Shown here: positions 7,671-21,492 of the stretch, piece after piece
How the letters are laid out: each line of letters begins with the position of its first letter
How positions within the stretch are numbered: position 1 is the stretch's first letter
NCBI GenBank assembly: GCA_017625935.1
Contig: JAGALA010000015.1
Span: forward strand, 7,696-71,695
From: Clostridia bacterium
Lineage (GTDB): Bacteria; Bacillota; Clostridia; Oscillospirales; CAG-272
Length of the DNA: 64,000 bases
Direction of reading: 5' to 3'
The notes under the pieces: generated by a model
Told to the model about the DNA's origin: nothing
The model's database searches: none
What the model saw: the letters and a program-made list of their open reading frames with translations, nothing else
Made by a program: the position numbers and the translations under genes

Positions 7671-9547
7671 TATTAACGTATCCGCTTTGCCTCCTTGCCT
7701 TACTCGGCATTCCGGCGATAATCATTATTTATATTATAAAGAGCCAATATACGGAGCAAACCGTCAGCACAACGTATATCTGGACGCTTAGCGAAAAATT
7801 CTTAAAGAGGAGAAATCCACTAAGCGGCCTTTCGGGCATTATTGCGCTGATTTTACAGCTCCTTATGATACTTTTAATCTCACTTGCGCTCATTATGCCT
7901 ATTTTCACCTTGAAGGACAGGGCAAATGAGTACACCTTTATTCTTGACGCGTCAGCTTCTATGAATATGGAAAGCGCGGACGGCAAAACACGCTTTGAGC
8001 GCGGCAAGGAGGAGATTGATAAGCTCATTGAAAAAGCACCGAACGGCAGTGAATACACCTTGATTTACGCAGGTGGCGAAGCTTCGACCGTTTACGAGGG
8101 CTTAAAGAGCAAGGAAAATGCAAGAAAGCTTCTTTCCGACCTTGCCCCATCATACACAACAGCTGACATTACCGAGGCGACAGGTCTTGCACAAAAGAGA
8201 TTTGATGCGCGCCCCGGCACCTTAACCTACCTTGTTACCGATAAAACCTACCGTACACACCAAAACGTGACGATAGTGAACGTGTCGGGCAGTGAGGACA
8301 ACTTTGGCATTACCGCCCTTGAATGTGAAATGAAATCAGAGGGTGCGGACAAGAATGCGCTTTACGTCAACGGTATATTAAACTCCTACAAGAAGGGGAC
8401 AACCTTAAAGGTTGAAATTTTCGTTGACGGGGCAGAGACACCTGACGCAAGCGCGACCTTTGTTGTGCCGCTCGGCGCTGACTTCAAGTTTGAAATTCCG
8501 CCGATTATGCTGAAAAAGCCAAGCTACGCAAGCGTTAAGGCTGTGATTTCAAATGCGGATTCATACGGTGCTGACAGCGAGGCTATCGTATATAACCTCA
8601 AAAACGAAAAGCAGTACAAGACCATAATTGTCAGTGAAACACCGTTCTTCTTGCAGGCGGCTGTCGGCTCACTCGGCGATTACGACGTAACCACCGTTAC
8701 CCCTTCAGAGTATGAAGAAAAGTACGCGGAAAATGACTACGGCTTATACATTTTCGATTCCTATACTCCCGCTAACCTTCCCGACAGCGGTGCGGTTTGG
8801 ATGATAAACTCCGATAGCAGCCTTGAAAATACGGGCTTCAGCTATCGCTCCGACGTGGTTTTGAACGAGCCTGTTGTGATGGAAAAATCAACCTCGTCAC
8901 AAACCGCAGTAAGAAAGCTGCTTGACGGTCTTATCACAAAGGATATTTACTTAATTAAGTATTTAAGGTATAGCACCTACGGCGACTATATGACGCTTTA
9001 TTCGTATGATGGCGTGCCGCTTATTATGGCGGGCGAAAACCTATACGGAAACAGAACGGTTGTCTTTGCATTCGACCTTCACGACTCGAACCTGCCTGCA
9101 ACGGGCGATTTTGTAAATCTTGTGGGCAACCTGCTTGATTATTCGTTCCCATCCGTGCTTGACGGTTCAAGCTATACAGCGGGTGACGAGATAATTATTA
9201 ATACGGTTGCAAACAGCGAAAGCGTTAAGGTGACCGCGCCAAGCGGAAAGGTAAAATACCTTGACACGCAGAAAACAATGAATGAATACGTGCTTGATGA
9301 AATCGGCACGTACACAGTAGAGGTAGAGGCAGGCGGAAGCGTGCGCGAGCATAAGCTATTTGCCGAAGCACCGCGTGAGGAGCGCGTGCCTACTGTAATT
9401 GAACCGAATTTCTCCATAATAGGTACGCCGAGCGGCGACCGCCTTGATGGAGAGTTCAACCCCGCTATCATTATATTTATAGCTATAATGGTTATTTTTG
9501 CGGCAGATTGGATGGTGTATATGTATGAGAAGCGTCAACTTCGATAA
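7667..9547 (+). CDS. BatA-like N-terminal domain plus VWA domain membrane protein
   Basis: BatA-like hydrophobic N-terminus, MIDAS LDASASM, LVTD, C-terminal TM helix. ATGA overlap with DUF58. Confidence 0.8.
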   Translation: MILTYPLCLLALLGIPAIIIIYIIKSQYTEQTVSTTYIWTLSEKFLKRRNPLSGLSGIIALILQLLMILLISLALIMPIFTLKDRANEYTFILDASASMNMESADGKTRFERGKEEIDKLIEKAPNGSEYTLIYAGGEASTVYEGLKSKENARKLLSDLAPSYTTADITEATGLAQKRFDARPGTLTYLVTDKTYRTHQNVTIVNVSGSEDNFGITALECEMKSEGADKNALYVNGILNSYKKGTTLKVEIFVDGAETPDASATFVVPLGADFKFEIPPIMLKKPSYASVKAVISNADSYGADSEAIVYNLKNEKQYKTIIVSETPFFLQAAVGSLGDYDVTTVTPSEYEEKYAENDYGLYIFDSYTPANLPDSGAVWMINSDSSLENTGFSYRSDVVLNEPVVMEKSTSSQTAVRKLLDGLITKDIYLIKYLRYSTYGDYMTLYSYDGVPLIMAGENLYGNRTVVFAFDLHDSNLPATGDFVNLVGNLLDYSFPSVLDGSSYTAGDEIIINTVANSESVKVTAPSGKVKYLDTQKTMNEYVLDEIGTYTVEVEAGGSVREHKLFAEAPREERVPTVIEPNFSIIGTPSGDRLDGEFNPAIIIFIAIMVIFAADWMVYMYEKRQLR

Positions 9548-13909: not shown

Positions 13910-16900
13910 ATGAAAAGAAGAATAGCTTTAGCTATGGCACTTGTTTTCACGCTTGCTATTGTATTCGTGCTTGCGTCCTGCGGTGGTGATGAGGGCTGTA
14001 AAAATCATACATACAGCACCGAATATACAACCGACGCATACGGACACTGGTACGTTTCAACCTGTGGCTGTGAGGGCGAGGTTGCCAACTACGGCGCGCA
14101 TAAGGATGAGGACAAAAACGGCAAATGCGACGTTTGCGAGTACGTGATTTGTGCTCACACATTTGCAAACGAGTGGTCAAGTGACGAAAACGGACACTAC
14201 TACGCTTCGACCTGCGAATGCGCACCTCAAAAATCAAACGAATCAGCTCACGTTGATGAAAACAAGGACGGCGTTTGTGACGTTTGTAAGTACGTTGTTT
14301 GCTCACACGAGTACGCAACCGAATGGTCAAGTGACGAAACAAACCACTGGAAAGCACCTGTGTGCGGCTGCGAAATTGATTCAAAGAGCTTCGGCGCACA
14401 CGTCGACTCAAACAAGGACGGTAACTGTGACACCTGCGCTTACGTTGTTTGCGCTCACACCTACGAGAGTGAGTGGTCAAGCGACGGAGCATACCACTGG
14501 TACGAAGCAACCTGCGGCTGTGACGTTGTTAAGGACAAGAAAGAGCACGAGGCGGGTGAGGATGAAACAGTCTGCGGTACCTGCGGTGCAAATATTTGCA
14601 AGCATACCTACGAGGATACCCTTTCATATGACGATACCTACCACTGGTACGCATCAAGCTGCGGCTGTGACGTTGTCAAGGACAAGGCAGAGCATACCTG
14701 GTCAAGCGCGTGGGAAAAGGACGGCACAGGACACTGGCACAAGACAGAGTGCGGCTGTGATGTTATAAGCTCAGTCGAGGAGCACTTTGACAGCGACGAT
14801 GAGGACTCACGCTGTGACAAGTGCGGTCAGATCGACTTTGCGTCCCTCATTGGCAATATTGACGAATATGTTGGCGAGGAAAGAAACCAAATAGACAGTA
14901 AGGTTGACGAAAAGGATCCGATTTACGATAACAAAATTTCAACCTCTCAGTCAATCAAGATTTACGACGATTATATTTTAGTGTTAGATGGCTTTGGTAA
15001 CAAAAAGTACATCTCATACTGCGGAGAGAACAACTCTATTCCGTTCGTTGTTAACGTGGATTCGGGCAATTTGGCACAAAGAGAGCTTGACTATGACGAT
15101 TCAAGTCTTTTAAGCTTCTACGGCGTTTGCGAGATTGCAGCAGGCACTTCCCTCGAGGAATATTTGATTTCGCTTTACAATCTCGGCGTAAGTGAAAACG
15201 CAAGCAGCTTTAACTACCTTTGCGATGAGGAAAATTCCAAATATTCATTCTCATACTTCTACGATGCAGGCTACGTATATGCAGACGTTGTAGTTGAGTT
15301 TACCCTTGACGAAGAGAGAATGGGCGTTACCTCACTCACACTTGACGAAAAAAGATATGACCACGATACATACGTGATGGGCGAAACTAACGTAGTTACG
15401 TATACTGTAAAGCAGACGATAACTCAAGGCTTTGGCGACCCAATGGATTCAACTGATGCGAAAAATCCATACGCTGCAAGCAAATACTTGTTTAGCGAGC
15501 TTATTCTCTTTATTGCGGAGAAAAAATTTGACGGCACGTACGCTCCTACAAGCGAGCAAATTACCGAGGGCTGCACAGTAATTATTGCGCCTGAATACGC
15601 AAACGGCTTGCGCCTTATGCTCGGTACTAACCAAGCACACTATGCAGAGTTCAACCGCTACACCGTTGAATCAAACGGACTTGAGGCGGGCTGGACAAAC
15701 TACCCAATCTTTATGTACGCAACAAAGGGCGGCACGTACGAGGTTACGGTTTCTAACGAGCTTACCTCAATTTCATTTACAGTTGTTGCAGAATATAAGG
15801 CACCTACAACGCTCAGACCTGCCGTTGTGGTTGACGACGAAAAGGTAAGAGTGAAGGAATACTCAATTTATAGCGGTCTTGAATTTGTTGTCGGCGTTTT
15901 GGCAAACTCCGCAGCTGAAAGCCCGTTTGTAAATATGCCTACCGTATCAAAGGGTGACGCTTCAAAGATTACCTTCACTAAGGACGGTGAAAACTGGATT
16001 GCCGTTGCTTCCGAGGCGGGTGAATACGAGCTTACATTCGTTTCCGCGCTTGACGAAAGCATAACCGCAACACTCCCACTTACAGTTCTTGAAATTCCGA
16101 CAGCAGCTGATATCTTAAACGGCTACTATGAGCTTTCAGAAAACGATATGTCAATGATAGGTAGCATTAAGTTCACACCTGTCGAGGCAGGCGCATCAAG
16201 CGGTACAGCTGTTCTTAAGATCACAATCCCCGGCAACCCAATGCTCGGCATGCCTGATGAGGTATGGGAGGCGACCGTTTCATACGCATATGAAAACGGC
16301 GGAATCGTTCTTTCGGGCACAGAGGGTGACGACGTTTCACAGTTCGCACTTAAAATCAGCGACAGATACGTTCTTACTCTTGTAAGAACTCCTTACCCCG
16401 AAATGCCTGATTATATCGAGGAATACGAGTTCTTTGCAACCGAAGAGATTATCATAAAAGACCCAACCGAAAATCCGTTCACAATGAACGTTGTGGAAAC
16501 ATATCAATATCACGAGAGCAATGCGTTTATCTTCGTTGCGGGCGAGGCAGGCAAGTACGTATTTAACGTTCCTGCGGGCTACGGCTTGAAGGTAAATTCA
16601 TCCGAAAAGGTTCACTATCTCAATAATGTAAGCGGCTTTGAGTTCTCACTTGACTTGAAGGAGCGTCAGGAGGTAACGTTTATTCCTATGGCGGCTAAAG
16701 TCGGCGAGGTTACAATGTACTTCCACATTGAAAAGGAAACAGTATTGACTGACGCAAACGGCCTTGGCGGCACATATACCTTCGTGGCACTTTCTCAGTT
16801 TGAATTGACGTTCACTCCAAGTGCATCGGGCGCTACAAGCGGTGTTCTTACAGTTAAGGATCCTATCAACATCAACAGATCCGGCAGCTTCTCCTACACA

Positions 16901-17665
16901 ATCGTAGACGGTGACTACGTCTTTAGCGAGGATGCGGGCGTGTTCATCACAAAGGACGTAATCGGCAGCTGGTCCTTCCAAAACGCAAGCTTGAGTAAGC
17001 CCTATCAGTTCTCAGGTCCAACCTCATACGTTGAGCCAACCGTGCAAGAAATTCCGTATAACGGCTACAAGGACGAAAACAAGCTCGGCGGCATCTACAC
17101 AGTTACCGCCCTCGGAAATGAATATAAGCTTATCATCGTTCCTTCAGCTGACGGCGGCGACGGCAACGGTATGCTTCAAATATACAACCCCGCAAGCGGA
17201 AAGTATAGCGAGCCATATAGCTACTTGGAAATATGCAACGAATACTTCTTTGATGATGCAAGTGTTGCAATATACAGAGAAAATGACAAATGGCTTATAA
17301 AAGCAGAAGGTCTTAACGGTGTTGAATTTGCTGATGCGACAGTTGAGGTAAAACCGCAAAGTAACGTGCTTGTAATCGGTTCAAATACAATCAAGCTTAC
17401 CCCTGTGGACATAGCTAACGGCGGTAAGGAATTCACAATAACACCAAGCGCGAAGGGCGAATTTACCTTTGATGGCGACGTTGATGTTTATGTTAGATAT
17501 GGCGACAATCTCGTGAAAGTATCCGGCAAGATTGTTGTTGAAAAGGGTGTAACATATACGGTTGTTATCACTACAAACGGTCCTGCGGGTGCATATTTAC
17601 TCAATGTCAACTTCATTCAGTACACAGGCGGTGGAATGGGCGAATTACCTGACGATGAGCTTTAA
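13910..17665 (+). CDS. Large surface lipoprotein with N-terminal Cys/His repeats and beta-rich domains
   Basis: Lipobox LASC. Six D-x3-H(W/Y)-x4-C-x-C units, several followed by H-x-D-x3-(D/N)G-x-CD-x-C. Beta-rich remainder. Confidence 0.7.
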   Translation: MKRRIALAMALVFTLAIVFVLASCGGDEGCKNHTYSTEYTTDAYGHWYVSTCGCEGEVANYGAHKDEDKNGKCDVCEYVICAHTFANEWSSDENGHYYASTCECAPQKSNESAHVDENKDGVCDVCKYVVCSHEYATEWSSDETNHWKAPVCGCEIDSKSFGAHVDSNKDGNCDTCAYVVCAHTYESEWSSDGAYHWYEATCGCDVVKDKKEHEAGEDETVCGTCGANICKHTYEDTLSYDDTYHWYASSCGCDVVKDKAEHTWSSAWEKDGTGHWHKTECGCDVISSVEEHFDSDDEDSRCDKCGQIDFASLIGNIDEYVGEERNQIDSKVDEKDPIYDNKISTSQSIKIYDDYILVLDGFGNKKYISYCGENNSIPFVVNVDSGNLAQRELDYDDSSLLSFYGVCEIAAGTSLEEYLISLYNLGVSENASSFNYLCDEENSKYSFSYFYDAGYVYADVVVEFTLDEERMGVTSLTLDEKRYDHDTYVMGETNVVTYTVKQTITQGFGDPMDSTDAKNPYAASKYLFSELILFIAEKKFDGTYAPTSEQITEGCTVIIAPEYANGLRLMLGTNQAHYAEFNRYTVESNGLEAGWTNYPIFMYATKGGTYEVTVSNELTSISFTVVAEYKAPTTLRPAVVVDDEKVRVKEYSIYSGLEFVVGVLANSAAESPFVNMPTVSKGDASKITFTKDGENWIAVASEAGEYELTFVSALDESITATLPLTVLEIPTAADILNGYYELSENDMSMIGSIKFTPVEAGASSGTAVLKITIPGNPMLGMPDEVWEATVSYAYENGGIVLSGTEGDDVSQFALKISDRYVLTLVRTPYPEMPDYIEEYEFFATEEIIIKDPTENPFTMNVVETYQYHESNAFIFVAGEAGKYVFNVPAGYGLKVNSSEKVHYLNNVSGFEFSLDLKERQEVTFIPMAAKVGEVTMYFHIEKETVLTDANGLGGTYTFVALSQFELTFTPSASGATSGVLTVKDPININRSGSFSYTIVDGDYVFSEDAGVFITKDVIGSWSFQNASLSKPYQFSGPTSYVEPTVQEIPYNGYKDENKLGGIYTVTALGNEYKLIIVPSADGGDGNGMLQIYNPASGKYSEPYSYLEICNEYFFDDASVAIYRENDKWLIKAEGLNGVEFADATVEVKPQSNVLVIGSNTIKLTPVDIANGGKEFTITPSAKGEFTFDGDVDVYVRYGDNLVKVSGKIVVEKGVTYTVVITTNGPAGAYLLNVNFIQYTGGGMGELPDDEL

Positions 17666-17690: not shown

Positions 17691-17762
17691 AAAGAACCGA
17701 TTGACGCGTTTGCGTCAATCGGTTCTTTTGTAAAAAAGCCATCGGCAAACCGATGGCTTTTT
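17691..17762. terminator. Two adjacent terminator hairpins between convergent genes
   Basis: AAAGAACCGATTGACGC-GTTT-GCGTCAATCGGTTCTTT and AAAAAGCCATCGG-CAAA-CCGATGGCTTTTT. Confidence 0.85.
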
Positions 17763-17773
17763 ATATGTGTTAA

Positions 17774-19216
17774 TCAATTATCCTTTTCGCGCATTTCTTC
17801 CACCTTGAATTCAAACCAGAAGATGCTGCCAACGCCTATTTCGCTTGAAACGCCGAAGCGCGATTCGTGAATAAGCAGGATGTTTTTTACAATTGAAAGA
17901 CCGAGGCCCGTGCCGTGAATTGCACGCTTGTGCACCTTGTCAATTTTGTAGTAGCGGTCCCAGATGAGCGGCAAGTTTTCCTCGCTTATGCCCTCGCCCG
18001 AGTCGATAACCGAGATTCGGACAATACCGTCCGTCACCTCTTGCAAAATCCTTACCGTTTTGTCCTCGCCCGTGTAGTTTATCGCGTTGTTTACAAGGTT
18101 GTAAACAACCTGTAAAAGGCGTGTTTCGTCCGCGTTTATAAAGACCTCGCAGTCGTAGTCAAAGGTAACCGTGTAGCCCTTGTGCTCAAGCAGCTTTTCA
18201 TATCTCTTTACCGTTTCGACAACCGATTTGGTAAGTGAAATCTTGGTCATATTTATTGACTGCGTGCCCGACTGAAGCTTGGAAACGGTCAAAAGGTCGT
18301 TTACAAGTGAGTTTAGGCGCGCCGTTTCGTCAATGATAATTTGCATATTCTCGGGTGTTCGCTCGTCGGGAAAGTCACGCATAACCTCGCTGTAGCCCGA
18401 AATCATAGTTAAGGGCGTTCTTAAATCGTGCGAGATGTTTGCAATAAGCTCCTTTTGAGTTGCGCTAAGCTTTTTTAATTCCCCTGTGGCTGCGTTTAGC
18501 GCCTCGGCAAGCTCGCAAACCTCCTTAGGGCCCTTTTCCTCGAAGGTCACGTCGTAGTCATAAAGAGATAAGCTCTTTGCCTTCTTGTAAATTTGCGAAA
18601 TCGGGTTTGAAATCCTTCTTGAAATGATAAAGGAAAGCACCACCGAGATAACAAGCGCAAAAACGGAAATTAAAAGGAGTAGCAGCTGAAACGCAAACTT
18701 TGTGAGTGCGGGCGGCTGTGCATCTGTGTTTATTATAATCATATGCGAGGGAGTGCCGTCCTCAAATTCACCTGCGAGCTTTACGTAAATAAACTCGAAG
18801 TCGCCTCCCGTTATATATTCGCGGTTCTCGCTTTGATATGCAAAGCGCATAAGCTCGGTAAGCATTTCCTTGTTTTCCTCGCCGTTTACCGTCGAAATTA
18901 CGTTATTGCCGTAGAGGTATAAAAATTCCTCACTAAAATTCTCCGAAATCGGCACAATGGCAATTGAAATATCGTCGCCGTACTGCCCCGAGGCACTCTC
19001 AAGGTAGCTGCCAAGGTTGGGGTCGTCGATTTTAGATGAAATATCGTTTGAAATGTTCGTTACGGTGTTTTCCTTAACGGCTCTGAACACAATTCTTAAA
19101 AACATTGCTTGGAAAAGCCAAAGCGACGCAATTAAGACAAGGGAAAAGGCAATCATCGAAATAAAAATATGTAAATTAATCGACAGATGCTTTCTTTTTA
19201 CGGATTTAGCTTTCAT
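17774..19216 (-). CDS. Sensor histidine kinase (2 TM, HAMP, HisKA, HATPase)
   Basis: SHDLRTPLT H-box, NLVNNAINY, DSGEGI, GTGLGLSI. Confidence 0.93.
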   Translation of the reverse strand: MKAKSVKRKHLSINLHIFISMIAFSLVLIASLWLFQAMFLRIVFRAVKENTVTNISNDISSKIDDPNLGSYLESASGQYGDDISIAIVPISENFSEEFLYLYGNNVISTVNGEENKEMLTELMRFAYQSENREYITGGDFEFIYVKLAGEFEDGTPSHMIIINTDAQPPALTKFAFQLLLLLISVFALVISVVLSFIISRRISNPISQIYKKAKSLSLYDYDVTFEEKGPKEVCELAEALNAATGELKKLSATQKELIANISHDLRTPLTMISGYSEVMRDFPDERTPENMQIIIDETARLNSLVNDLLTVSKLQSGTQSINMTKISLTKSVVETVKRYEKLLEHKGYTVTFDYDCEVFINADETRLLQVVYNLVNNAINYTGEDKTVRILQEVTDGIVRISVIDSGEGISEENLPLIWDRYYKIDKVHKRAIHGTGLGLSIVKNILLIHESRFGVSSEIGVGSIFWFEFKVEEMREKDN

Positions 19217-19902
19217 TTTTCCTCAAAGCGGTAGCCCATACCGCGGATTGTAACTATAAAATCACTGTACTTGCCAAGGCTTTTTCTCAAAATCTTGATG
19301 TGAGTGTCAAGGGTTCGGTCATCGCCGAAAAAGTCGTAGCCCCATACGTCAGAGAGCAGCTTGTCACGTGAAAGGGCGATATTCTTGTTTCTTAGCATAT
19401 AGAAGAAAAGCTCGTATTCCTTTGGCGACATATTTGCGCGCTCACCGTCGATGTAAACAATTCTTGCGGTAAAATCCGCAACCAAGCCGCCGTTTGCCAA
19501 GGAAACTATCTCGTTTTTGTTTTCTTCCTTCTTTTCGCTTGCACGCGCACGCTTCATAATAGCGTCAACGCGGAGCATAAGCTCTTTTGGCGAAAACGGC
19601 TTAACAACATAATCGTCAATTCCGATTTCAAAGCCGTTTATCTTGTCGTATTCCTCACCGCGTGCGGAAAGCATAATGATAGGCACGTTGCTCGTTTCGC
19701 GAATCTTGCGTGAAGCGGAGAAGCCGTCAAGCTCGGGCATCATAATATCCATAATAACGATATCAAACTTATCCCTTGAGAATTTCATTACGGCGTCCAT
19801 ACCGTTAGACGCCTCGGTAACGGTGTGCCCTTCAAATTCGGCATATTTACGGATGAGCTTTCTTATCATATCCTCATCATCAACAATTAAAATATTGTAC
19901 AT
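19213..19902 (-). CDS. OmpR/PhoB-family response regulator
   Basis: ILIVDDE, MDIMMPELDG, DDYVVKPFSP, winged helix RTLDTHIKILR...TIRGMGY. ATG 19902 follows GAGGTG. Confidence 0.95.
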   Translation of the reverse strand: MYNILIVDDEDMIRKLIRKYAEFEGHTVTEASNGMDAVMKFSRDKFDIVIMDIMMPELDGFSASRKIRETSNVPIIMLSARGEEYDKINGFEIGIDDYVVKPFSPKELMLRVDAIMKRARASEKKEENKNEIVSLANGGLVADFTARIVYIDGERANMSPKEYELFFYMLRNKNIALSRDKLLSDVWGYDFFGDDRTLDTHIKILRKSLGKYSDFIVTIRGMGYRFEEK

Positions 19903-19920
19903 TATAATCACCTCTATAAT

Positions 19921-19949
19921 ATTTTATCATATATAAATTCAAATTTCAA
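19921..19949 (-). promoter_or_regulatory. SigA-type promoter of the two-component operon
   Basis: Minus strand TTGAAA-17 nt-TAAAAT with TG extension. Confidence 0.6.
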
Positions 19950-19983
19950 TATAGTATTTATTTGTGCCAAAAAGGTGTCAAGG

Positions 19984-20025
19984 AAACCAAAAACGCACCC
20001 CAAGTGAGAAGTGCGTTTTTGGTTT
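19984..20025. terminator. Terminator-like hairpin
   Basis: AAACCAAAAACGCAC-12 nt-GTGCGTTTTTGGTTT. Confidence 0.75.
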
Positions 20026-20029
20026 TATA

Positions 20030-20300
20030 TTTTGAAGGAGAGTAGATTGAGTCTATTTTAGTGCGCCCGTGCCACGGGCTTTAATCTCCAAAGCTTTTTT
20101 GCGTTACACTCGCAAAACCAAAGCGAGTGTAACAAAAGCTGATGCTAAGCATCTATGTTTAAGGAGAGAGATATGGTCTATATTTATTAACTCCTTAATG
20201 CGCTTTTTTGCTACACTCGTCGTTTTGACGAGTGCAACCAAAGCTCCCGCGCCGAAAAGATTCGGCTTGGGTGTGATTAAGGAGAGAGGGTGTAGTCAAA
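20030..20300 (-). ncRNA. Candidate tandem structured small-RNA array with anti-SD motifs
   Basis: AAGGAGAG...GTC motif at 20035, 20161 and 20279. Two related ACTCG...CGAGT hairpins inside AAAGC/GCTTT and CTCC/GGAG stems. Strand inferred from the upstream gene and terminator. Confidence 0.5.
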
Positions 20301-20301
20301 T

Positions 20302-21060
20302 TTAGTTTAGCTTTCTTTGATATTCAAGCTCGGTTAAGCGCAAATAAGCGCCGAATGCGATAGGACCGGGGATGTAGTTGATTTTTTCAACCTCACCGTC
20401 AGCGCCTATACCAACAAGCTCACCGTTTAGGTTGAAAACTCCGCCGCCTGCTGCGCCGATTATAATAAATCCGCTTGGCTGTGTATCTTCAGGACTTGCC
20501 CATTTTACACAGGGGAGCACCTTTGCATCCTCGTAAATTTTTAAAACCGCGATGCCTGAGGCGTTGTCCGCGCCGCAAAGCACTGCCTCATATTTATTTC
20601 CGTTTTCGCACGTTACGTCAGCGAGCAAGGCAGGAAGACCTGAGCGATGATTGCTGATAACGGCTGTTGTTGTTACAATGTAGTAGCCGTGTCTGTCGTT
20701 TGAGTCCGAAAACTCGCCCGCGATAACACCGCTGCCCGATGAACCTGTTTTTGTGTTAACCGATACAACGGATTTTTTGAGTGAATCAAATATATTTACT
20801 GAATTCTTGCCCTCGCTGAGCGCTGCCTGATCACCGCTTGAAACGTACGATGTGGAGTGTGTAACTCTTGGCGTATCGTTGTTCATTTTGCGTGAAATTG
20901 CGATAAAAGCAAGAATTGAGGTTGAAACAATTACTGACGTAGCTGCAAGCGATATACAAACTATAAGAACGATGGGAAGTGTTCTTTTCTTTTGAGAAAC
21001 TGCTTCGCCGTCTTGATTTTTGATACCGTTTAAGCTGTCGTTAAATATATAATTAGACAT
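20302..21060 (-). CDS. Membrane-anchored HtrA/trypsin-like protein lacking catalytic residues and PDZ domain
   Basis: One TM helix, SVVSV, GSGVI, YIVTTTAV (canonical TNxHV), GIAVLKI (canonical DxAVLKI), GAAGGGVFNLNGELVGI (canonical GNSGG). Confidence 0.75.
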   Translation of the reverse strand: MSNYIFNDSLNGIKNQDGEAVSQKKRTLPIVLIVCISLAATSVIVSTSILAFIAISRKMNNDTPRVTHSTSYVSSGDQAALSEGKNSVNIFDSLKKSVVSVNTKTGSSGSGVIAGEFSDSNDRHGYYIVTTTAVISNHRSGLPALLADVTCENGNKYEAVLCGADNASGIAVLKIYEDAKVLPCVKWASPEDTQPSGFIIIGAAGGGVFNLNGELVGIGADGEVEKINYIPGPIAFGAYLRLTELEYQRKLN

Positions 21061-21105
21061 AAAACCTGCCTATTAAAATCATTATTCTTTCCATGTTACG
21101 CTACT

Positions 21106-21137
21106 ATTCTACAACACGAATGTGAATTCTGTGTGAA
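21106..21137 (-). promoter_or_regulatory. OmpR-family-type direct repeat plus -10 box upstream of the HtrA-like gene
   Basis: Minus strand TTCACA-N5-TTCACA, 9 nt, then TAGAAT. No consensus -35. Confidence 0.6.
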
Positions 21138-21176
21138 GATGGTAAAAAAAATAATTGAAAAATCGCAAAAAGAATC

Positions 21177-21205: not shown

Positions 21206-21241
21206 ACCGAATGAAGTATGCAATCTTGGCATATTTTTGGA

Positions 21242-21492
21242 AAAGCTATGATGAAGCCGGCAATTTCCAAGCTCCATTCACAGAGAGGGCGCACACGGCT
21301 GAGAGGTGCCTAATGGTAGGATGTTTGCATTTCCCTTCGGAGCTGATTTTCTGAAAATTGAGTAGGAAAATACGGGAGATCCCGTTATAGGTCGTGGAAG
21401 TGATAGCTTCCTTAAAGTGCCGCATTTGCGGAATTTGGGTGGTACCGCGGACTTTTGTTCGTCCCTTGCTAAAAAGCGAGGGGCTTTTTTTA
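21242..21492 (+). promoter_or_regulatory. T-box riboswitch (Phe)
   Basis: Stem I AGAGA and GCTGAGA motifs, TTC specifier candidates near 21331-21338, T-box AATTTGGGTGGTACCGCG (21432-21449), terminator 21461-21492, upstream of pheS. Confidence 0.93.

Follow-up and report, generated by a model that had tools for sequence, protein, structure and literature searches.

A conserved CU-rich RNA element behind a predicted non-catalytic HtrA derivative in a CssRS-like locus of uncultured Clostridia

The locus described here lies within a 64,000-nt stretch of DNA (the window: positions 7,696 to 71,695 of contig JAGALA010000015.1, forward strand) from a Clostridia bacterium of the GTDB lineage Oscillospirales; CAG-272 (assembly GCA_017625935.1). 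It comprises a gene for an HtrA-like protein, a CU-rich RNA tail behind that gene, and the genes of a two-component system consisting of an OmpR-type response regulator and a sensor histidine kinase, all on the minus strand. In the direction of transcription, a repeated promoter box is followed by the −10 hexamer TAGAAT, the HtrA-like open reading frame (ORF), three modules with the motif CTCTCCTT, a terminator, the regulator and the kinase (Table 1; all coordinates are positions in the window). An initial annotation, made from the letters of this DNA, had listed a direct repeat 9 nt ahead of a −10 box, an HtrA-like ORF without its catalytic triad, three tandem units complementary to Shine-Dalgarno (SD) sequences, a terminator, and a regulator and kinase with a promoter of their own, and all of these parts were recovered at their places.

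Promoter box and two-component system

The direct repeat TTCACA-N5-TTCACA occurs once in the window, and no match arose in any of 100 shuffled versions. Three copies exist in the 2.08-Mb genome, and the one at htrA alone is followed by TAnnnT at a distance of 7–11 nt. The uniqueness of box plus −10 would fit the htrA transcript as the main direct output of the system. Further upstream, the TTCAAT of TTTTCAAT, which begins 22 bp or two helical turns ahead of the first TTCACA, is probably a third half-site of the regulator. The promoter TTTTCAAt-N14-tcTTCAtA-N3-ttTTCACA-N9-TAnAAT was kept in 20 of the 21 genus loci with a readable upstream region. In other genera of the family, the same repeat and −10 element stand upstream of htrA in 15 of 29 loci, and an OmpR-type regulator follows directly downstream of htrA in about 21 of these 29; with full-length HtrA as the query, matches were obtained in 58 of 61 family genomes. 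Just after the −10 element (within 21060–21099) most relatives have ATATCGTAA where this genome has AGTAGCGTAA, a conserved start of the htrA 5′ untranslated region (5′UTR).

The octamer in the htrA-like promoter equals the CssR box published for Bacillus subtilis, TTTTCACA, as given in the portion of that account considered here (PMC6749698); in an excerpt of a review, CssRS adjoins htrA2, and CiaRH controls htrA (PMC12826053). Because of this identity, and because box, htrA and regulator are linked across many genera of the family, the combination of two-component system, htrA and box is classified, from its sequence, as a CssRS-like system, a kind already known. The comparison with CssRS, CiaRH and LisRK made in the initial annotation was thus apt. 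By the likeness in domains, gene order and box, the locus would be a secretion or envelope-stress module, its regulator would bind to the box, and its transcript would be induced by stress.

The regulator consists of a receiver and a winged-helix domain (Pfam Response_reg, 105.2 bits; Trans_reg_C, 82.1 bits). In the kinase, HAMP, HisKA and HATPase_c all score above the Pfam cut-offs, and two hydrophobic segments, judged from sequence to span about residues 13–40 and 171–197, flank an approximately 130-aa loop. With NCBIfam, regulator and kinase gave below-cut-off matches only (PhoB, RpaB, CseB, YycF and others). Their own extended −10 promoter, TTGnnn-17-TGnTAnAAT, is present behind the terminator in 18 of 22 genus loci. 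The order of a divergent pheS, htrA and the regulator is common to most genus loci examined; in a few, another gene replaces pheS.

Table 1. Positions of the features of the htrA-like locus in the window
Feature	Position	Strand	Basis or composition
Upstream octamer TTTTCAAT	21154..21161	−	Sequence; genus promoter alignment
Direct repeat TTCACA-N5-TTCACA (TTCACAcagaaTTCACA)	21121..21137	−	CssR-type box replacing −35 element
−10 hexamer TAGAAT	21106..21111	−	9 nt past the repeat
HtrA-derived pseudoprotease ORF (predicted), 252 aa	20302..21060	−	ORF, Pfam, alignment, fold
Spacer behind htrA, 390 nt	three CTCTCCTT at 20286–20279, 20168–20161, 20042–20035	−	
Array module 1	20185..20301	−	CU-rich CTCTCTCCTT 20288–20279, two hairpins, GA-rich TTAAGGAG 20198–20191
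Array module 2	20059..20184	−	CU-rich CTCTCTCCTT 20170–20161, hairpins, GA-rich TGGAGAT 20090–20084, small GC hairpin 20079–20065
Terminal module, candidate small RNA derived from the 3′ untranslated region	19980..20058	−	Single-stranded seed (..GACTCAATCTACTCTCCTTCAAAATA) and intrinsic terminator
Intrinsic terminator arms, perfect 15 nt, T-run	20025–20011 and 19998–19984	−	Inverted-repeat search
Sigma-A-type promoter of regulator-kinase operon, TTGAAA-17-(TG)TAAAAT	19921..19949	−	Promoter scan
OmpR-family response regulator	19213..19911	−	Pfam; probable start ATG at 19902
Sensor histidine kinase	17774..19216	−	Two hydrophobic segments, ~130-aa loop, HAMP, HisKA, HATPase_c
Two-way terminator, 13-bp stem	17733..17762	both	Ends kinase gene and convergent 1251-aa gene

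A short form of HtrA

At the equivalent locus, relatives of the same genus encode an HtrA of about 400 aa. The 252-aa ORF found here matches Pfam Trypsin_2 with 28.3 bits (cut-off 27.6), and with NCBIfam yields only partial DegP/DegS matches far under the cut-off. When the protein is aligned with the intact paralogue of the same genome and with 12 relatives of full length, Ala, Gly and Ala occupy the triad positions His, Asp and Ser, respectively. Moreover, some 43–50 residues of the second barrel of the protease domain are absent, Pfam finds no PDZ domain in the ORF, and the alignment stops about 100 residues short of the full-length relatives. The family N-terminus MSNYIFND and the membrane anchor are retained, with a transmembrane helix at about residues 30–60 and a truncated trypsin-like domain at 90–250. 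For residues 90–250, AlphaFold2 predicts a fold at a mean local confidence (pLDDT) of about 90, for which the top Foldseek matches are the protease domains of HtrA, DegS and DegQ (E from 7e-9). The paralogue, encoded elsewhere in the genome at a gene without the box, has 460 aa and the motifs TNYHV, DIAVL and GNSGG.

Among 5.8 billion proteins searched, the short form is represented by 12 clusters, 252–263 aa long and 55–94% identical, which share the same deletions; four longer proteins at 32–35% identity were also retrieved. Asp and Ser are absent from all 12 clusters and His from 11. The nine short forms placed in a maximum-likelihood tree make up one clade (support 100/100) on a long stem, with the His-retaining form basal; they sit in a larger clade (82/100, without resolved branching inside) that also takes in the full-length HtrAs from genomes with multi-module arrays. 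Within the genus, the short form is carried by 3 of 50 species genomes, and the two of these examined in full both have the box, an array of three or four modules and the regulator. Three short-form coding sequences contain no stop and no frame shift, and their nonsynonymous and synonymous divergences (dN 0.26–0.32, dS 0.93–1.25) yield a dN/dS of about 0.25–0.3.

Since 12 related clusters share the same deletions, recent decay does not account for the short form. The ORF encodes a selected HtrA derivative rather than a pseudogene, and its loss of catalysis is read from the triad positions. The initial annotation had seen in the pseudoprotease mRNA a mere carrier of the RNA units, a view at odds with this intact, constrained family of proteins. 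The conserved clade of short-form HtrA pseudoproteases is a new part of the finding. For a bacterial HtrA-type pseudoprotease as such, there is a precedent in MamO, a repurposed member of the HtrA/trypsin family in magnetotactic bacteria and likewise a trypsin-fold protein retained without catalytic activity for another role; its lineage and its role in metal binding during biomineralisation are unrelated, according to the part of the source considered (PMC4794232), and the protein described here has in addition lost second-barrel residues and the PDZ domain. When the outer loop of the kinase (residues 40–172) and the pseudoprotease domain (residues 88–252) were predicted as a complex, the scores were 0.23, 0.46 and 0.01, against a mark of 0.32.

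Two side observations concern trypsin-like genes at other loci. On contig C52 of genome G000 (locus L022), a pair of neighbouring ORFs, 319 and 460 aa long, encode secreted trypsin-like proteins without HtrA motifs, with one weak Trypsin_2 match. In genome G009, which is 74% complete, a frame shift or an assembly error divides htrA (L013, 992–2202) between two ORFs, 269 and 152 aa long, with an overlap near the GNSGG region; the CU-rich unit behind the split gene is intact.

The CU-rich tail

The motif CTCTCCTT occurs six times in the window, compared to 1.06 copies expected, and none of 100 shuffles reached six; three of the copies fall in the spacer behind htrA. A pyrimidine motif followed by a hairpin was present between htrA and the regulator in all 19 relatives' loci of the first search, in one of them as the variant ATCTCCTT. 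The 20 terminal units that were aligned share ..GACTCnATCTnCTCTCCTT(C)AAAAT, with core columns that are invariant or at least 90% conserved. This element, which can also be written CTCTCCTT(C)AAAAT, is CU-rich and predicted to be single-stranded, and a terminator follows it. In the terminator stem, with perfect arms in this genome, 12 of 13 pairs show compensatory changes across the 20 units. The conservation of the seed, as we call the pyrimidine motif, exceeds that of its flanks, the HtrA proteins encoded beside the terminal units being only about 30–40% identical. None of the strain variants in two further DNA data sets alters any of the three copies of CTCTCCTT in the array. A simple terminator scan missed the terminator because its 12-nt loop exceeds the limit of the scan.

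From the 20 aligned terminal units we built a covariance model, R1. In this genome it finds one strong copy (77.5 bits over 19980–20067; runner-up 28.4 bits). It matches 40 of 50 genus genomes, including 19 of the 23 of high quality, with the unit directly 3′ of htrA. Half of the 40 matches come from genomes outside the building of the model, and in 17 of these 20 the unit lies on the same contig and strand as an HtrA match and directly 3′ of it. Across the family, searched with stricter filters in 151 genomes from 97 genera, R1 matched two genomes, both of this genus, and none of the other 96 genera. Likewise, in 29 loci of other genera there was no comparable motif 3′ of htrA, apart from one ATCTCCTT buried in a hairpin. 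Rfam gave no match at E up to 1 in 20030–20300 and, T-box excepted, none at E up to 0.1 in six relatives' loci. A literature search, in part judged by title, yielded no description of a comparable element in an htrA 3′ untranslated region (3′UTR).

The conserved CU-rich motif and terminator behind htrA are the other new part of the finding, an RNA motif without an Rfam family. By its distribution, the tail is a genus-level addition to an older htrA-cssRS-like operon, under strong constraint. The initial annotation had let its proposal hang, among other things, on conservation of the array in relatives and had suggested a synteny search; the recurrence of htrA, CU-rich unit and regulator in the genus loci, with a nearly invariant seed and a covarying stem, clearly bears this conservation out. 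Among the genomes having the tail, it is mostly found behind an intact HtrA of about 400 aa, and hence it is not tied to a dead protease. From the envelope-stress circuit that the initial annotation had drawn, the anatomy, the analogies and the conserved array are thus retained; the tie to a dead protease, like the notion of a mere carrier, is not.

The number of modules varies. Among 22 loci there is one module in 13, two in one, three in seven and four in one, and the tree confines multi-module arrays to the clade that also contains the short forms. In the window, a repeat search and an alignment place the modules about 118–126 nt apart, with further shared similarity between them; Tandem Repeats Finder reported nothing in 19900–20400, as the divergence between the modules is too great for it. 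Homology among the internal modules is clear in the short-form subclade, where each has TTGACyATATCTCTCTCCTTAAA and sometimes an extra small hairpin. This part of an internal module is followed by a long hairpin (GCTTTGGTTACACTCG...CGAGTGTAAC..AAAGC) and a GA-rich segment, TTTAAGGA or TTAAGGAG. The GA-rich segment is able to pair with the CU motif either within the same module or in the next, and minimum-energy folds usually leave one CU motif free. The predicted probability of being unpaired averages 0.81 for terminal seeds (0.8 or higher in 13 of 22 loci) and 0.52 for internal seeds (n = 18); for the terminal seed of the window it is 0.96 in the isolated unit. These predictions are no more than suggestive of a masking of CU motifs by GA-rich segments, and the single-module loci have no GA-rich segment. 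Before the terminal unit there is often a TAAAAT-like hexamer, with neither a −35 element nor a TG extension seen; as no internal promoter is evident, the units are probably co-transcribed with htrA.

Two kinds of repeat in relatives are recorded here as observations in their own right. In L008 (483–628), and also past the terminator in L002 and L007, the descending arm of the sRNA-like terminator recurs in head-to-tail order; there are 7.7 copies of a 19-nt unit, CAAAGACGCGCCCCGAAAA (stored strand), which amount to a series of half-terminators located between array and regulator promoter. In L010 (704–772), about ten copies of the 7-nt GTCAGCA (stored strand) lie between the htrA terminator and the regulator promoter of that one relative.

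Outside the locus proper, a T-box leader of pheS/pheT (21239–21469, plus strand, 101.3 bits) is divergent from the htrA-like promoter, with which the pheST promoter has a common intergenic region, about 180 nt long; no other Rfam family in the window exceeds its gathering score. A gene convergent with that of the kinase (13910–17665, plus strand) encodes a predicted lipoprotein of 1251 aa (N-terminus ...VLASCGG) that has no Pfam match and in which a Cys/His-rich module (H.Y..EWSSD..GH......C.C ... NKDG.CD.C.YV.C.H) recurs about six times.

Possible function of the tail

We propose that the tail is a stress-induced, 3′UTR-derived anti-SD small RNA (sRNA) acting in trans, a reading that, by analogy with known systems, we consider to be evenly balanced between right and wrong. 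The kinase would detect stress outside the membrane and phosphorylate the OmpR-type regulator, which would bind the phased TTCAnA repeats in place of a −35 element and turn on a single transcript. This transcript would encode a membrane-anchored HtrA derivative, non-catalytic yet selected in this species and its close kin, and would end in a 3′UTR of one to four modules, each with a pyrimidine motif CUCUCCUU complementary to SD sequences of the type AAGGAGAG. The terminal module with its free seed and terminator may be released, or may persist, as an RNA of about 70–80 nt that would pair with the ribosome binding sites of other mRNAs and lower their translation under stress. The internal modules, with the same seed partly masked by the GA-rich segment, might yield further sRNAs after processing or might tune the free seed. 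We arrive at the sRNA reading because a free anti-SD seed stands directly before the terminator on the sole transcript that has the regulator box. The tail also has the traits of 3′UTR-derived sRNAs in its 3′UTR position, in sharing the intrinsic terminator of the mRNA and in a seed conserved above its flanks. The functional precedents CpxQ, csRNAs and LhrC suggest that the tail may be processed and may act in trans by covering ribosome binding sites.

The following comparisons draw on excerpts of the published descriptions. With CssRS/htrA/htrB of B. subtilis, the locus shares an OmpR-type regulator and a membrane kinase beside an htrA-type gene and a promoter with repeated octamers of the TTTTCACA type; these excerpts describe no 3′UTR anti-SD element for B. 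subtilis htrA/htrB, and, unlike there, the linked HtrA is non-catalytic in one subclade here. Streptococcal CiaRH acts through a direct repeat of two hexamers spaced by N5, about 10 nt ahead of the −10 element, and its outputs are htrA and sRNAs with an unpaired anti-SD sequence. Its box, however, is TTTAAG, compared with TTCACA here, and the csRNAs are separate genes with CiaR promoters of their own, whereas the units described here share the htrA promoter and sit in the 3′UTR. LisRK and LhrC1-5 of Listeria monocytogenes again combine an envelope-stress two-component system with multicopy sRNAs that have redundant CU-rich target-binding sites, and LhrC acts without need of Hfq; each LhrC sRNA is made from a promoter of its own and has three CU sites, whereas here there is one per module, co-transcribed behind a protein gene. 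The element has no covariance-model match to the Rfam families of csRNA or LhrC, and in place of their regulator-dependent promoter for each sRNA gene, one box plus −10, present once in this genome, serves the whole transcript. CpxQ comes from the 3′UTR of cpxP in Escherichia coli and Salmonella, where one stress-induced transcript of an envelope two-component system gives an extracytoplasmic protein and a 3′UTR sRNA sharing the mRNA terminator. CpxQ is Gram-negative, a single unit with a seed that is not anti-SD, and has no sequence relation to the tail; it depends on Hfq and RNase E.

Several results weigh against the proposed sRNA. Duplex scans with the three seeds at GGAGA/AGGAG sites genome-wide, and over 1731 crude start regions, revealed no outlier target. 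The 12-mer complement of the seed occurs about 30 times outside the array in 50 genus genomes and does not mark one shared gene; of 12 such places examined, two were start regions, belonging to different genes. Start regions of proteins with a hydrophobic N-terminus showed no enrichment of the seed complement (Fisher p 0.19–1.0; one Mann-Whitney p 0.035). The pairing between internal CU and GA motifs beats shuffles (z below −2) in just 4 of 18 modules. There is no Hfq match in the 95%-complete genome; Hfq is not required for sRNA action in Gram-positives, but its absence takes away one possible support. Of 24 public runs listed, 20, from animal gut samples, hold DNA of the locus, and one is an RNA run. 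This sole RNA data set consists of one 219-nt contig over 20860–21078, the 5′ part of the ORF, with nothing over the 3′UTR; it is uninformative either way on expression of the tail, and contigs cannot show RNA ends.

Among other explanations, one that we rate as possible though rather unlikely is that the CU-rich modules act in cis only, as a 3′UTR stability, processing or insulation element that shields the htrA message, uncouples it from the regulator-kinase operon and has no trans targets. The element always stands between htrA and the regulator and closes in a strong terminator, no trans target was found, and, since the two genes are often just about 40–100 nt apart in other genera, where the element is absent, the insert does uncouple both units in this genus. 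A terminator alone would insulate, however, and the near-invariant, single-stranded pyrimidine motif of 14–26 nt, retained while stems drift, is left unexplained; nor does the seed pair with the htrA 5′UTR or with the start region of the regulator beyond shuffled seeds (mean z −0.24 and +0.57, respectively, 19 loci each). The GA-rich segments could act like the SD-like sequences at which held ribosomes block RNase J1 in B. subtilis, as an excerpt of that work has it (PMC5737220); the single-module loci, 13 of 22, would be without any such segment. An improbable alternative makes the array a protein-binding RNA, a sponge or platform whose CU- or GA-rich motifs bind an RNA-binding protein instead of mRNAs. 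Short motifs repeated in one to four copies within a structured RNA would suit this role, and the GA-rich AAGGA/GGAG segments resemble what we take to be CsrA sites. The same 95%-complete genome holds a family match to neither CsrA nor Hfq, however; the lack of a CsrA match makes a CsrA-type sponge unlikely, and the commonest and most conserved form of the tail, a single CU motif without a GA motif, would be a poor sponge.

Two further explanations concern the reality of the features themselves. The locus could be decaying, with the 252-aa ORF as a pseudogene and the 390-nt spacer as a remnant of PDZ-coding sequence or junk repeats, as the presence of an intact HtrA paralogue elsewhere in the genome might suggest. 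This is very hard to reconcile with 12 clusters in one clade free of frame breaks, a dN far below dS and a confidently predicted fold; besides, the spacer modules have homologues in the arrays that follow htrA genes for intact 400-aa proteins, and are therefore not PDZ remnants. We find it scarcely credible that, on the plus strand, AAGGAGAG serves as a genuine ribosome binding site, be it of mini-ORFs or of an antisense transcript. Each copy is indeed followed at SD spacing by GTG, ATG or TTG, opening ORFs of 1, 5 and 4 codons, but the start codon is not conserved, with relatives alternating GACTCAATCT with GACTCTATCT (TTG to TAG); the plus strand has no promoter or gene upstream, just the antisense of the regulator gene, and where a locus has a single module, the motif directly adjoins the stop codon of htrA. 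As coding candidates, the plus-strand mini-ORFs and a 45-aa minus-strand ORF in the array were rejected, being not conserved in relatives, and the module lengths are not multiples of three.

The sRNA reading can be joined with the folding predictions. The tail would then be a modular self-masking RNA with n anti-SD seeds and n−1 SD-mimicking GA-rich segments, each able to pair with the seed on either side, and in the short-form clade the RNA would be the main effector and HtrA its non-catalytic partner, as a chaperone or a co-sensor of the kinase. We regard this combination as unlikely; if it were true, folding, temperature or RNase processing would determine how much of the seed stays free.

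The combination of a quality-control protein and a translation-blocking sRNA within one envelope-stress system is on record for a few model organisms (Cpx/CpxQ, CiaRH/csRNAs and LisRK/LhrC). The finding defines an RNA motif without an Rfam family and a conserved bacterial pseudoenzyme derived from HtrA. The loci form a series in which the modules number from one to four and the HtrA ahead of them is either intact or non-catalytic; this provides a natural comparison of the parts. By analogy, these results suggest that the same protein-plus-sRNA logic may have arisen independently in a genus of uncultured animal-gut Clostridia, with the RNA fused to the htrA message and expanded into arrays.

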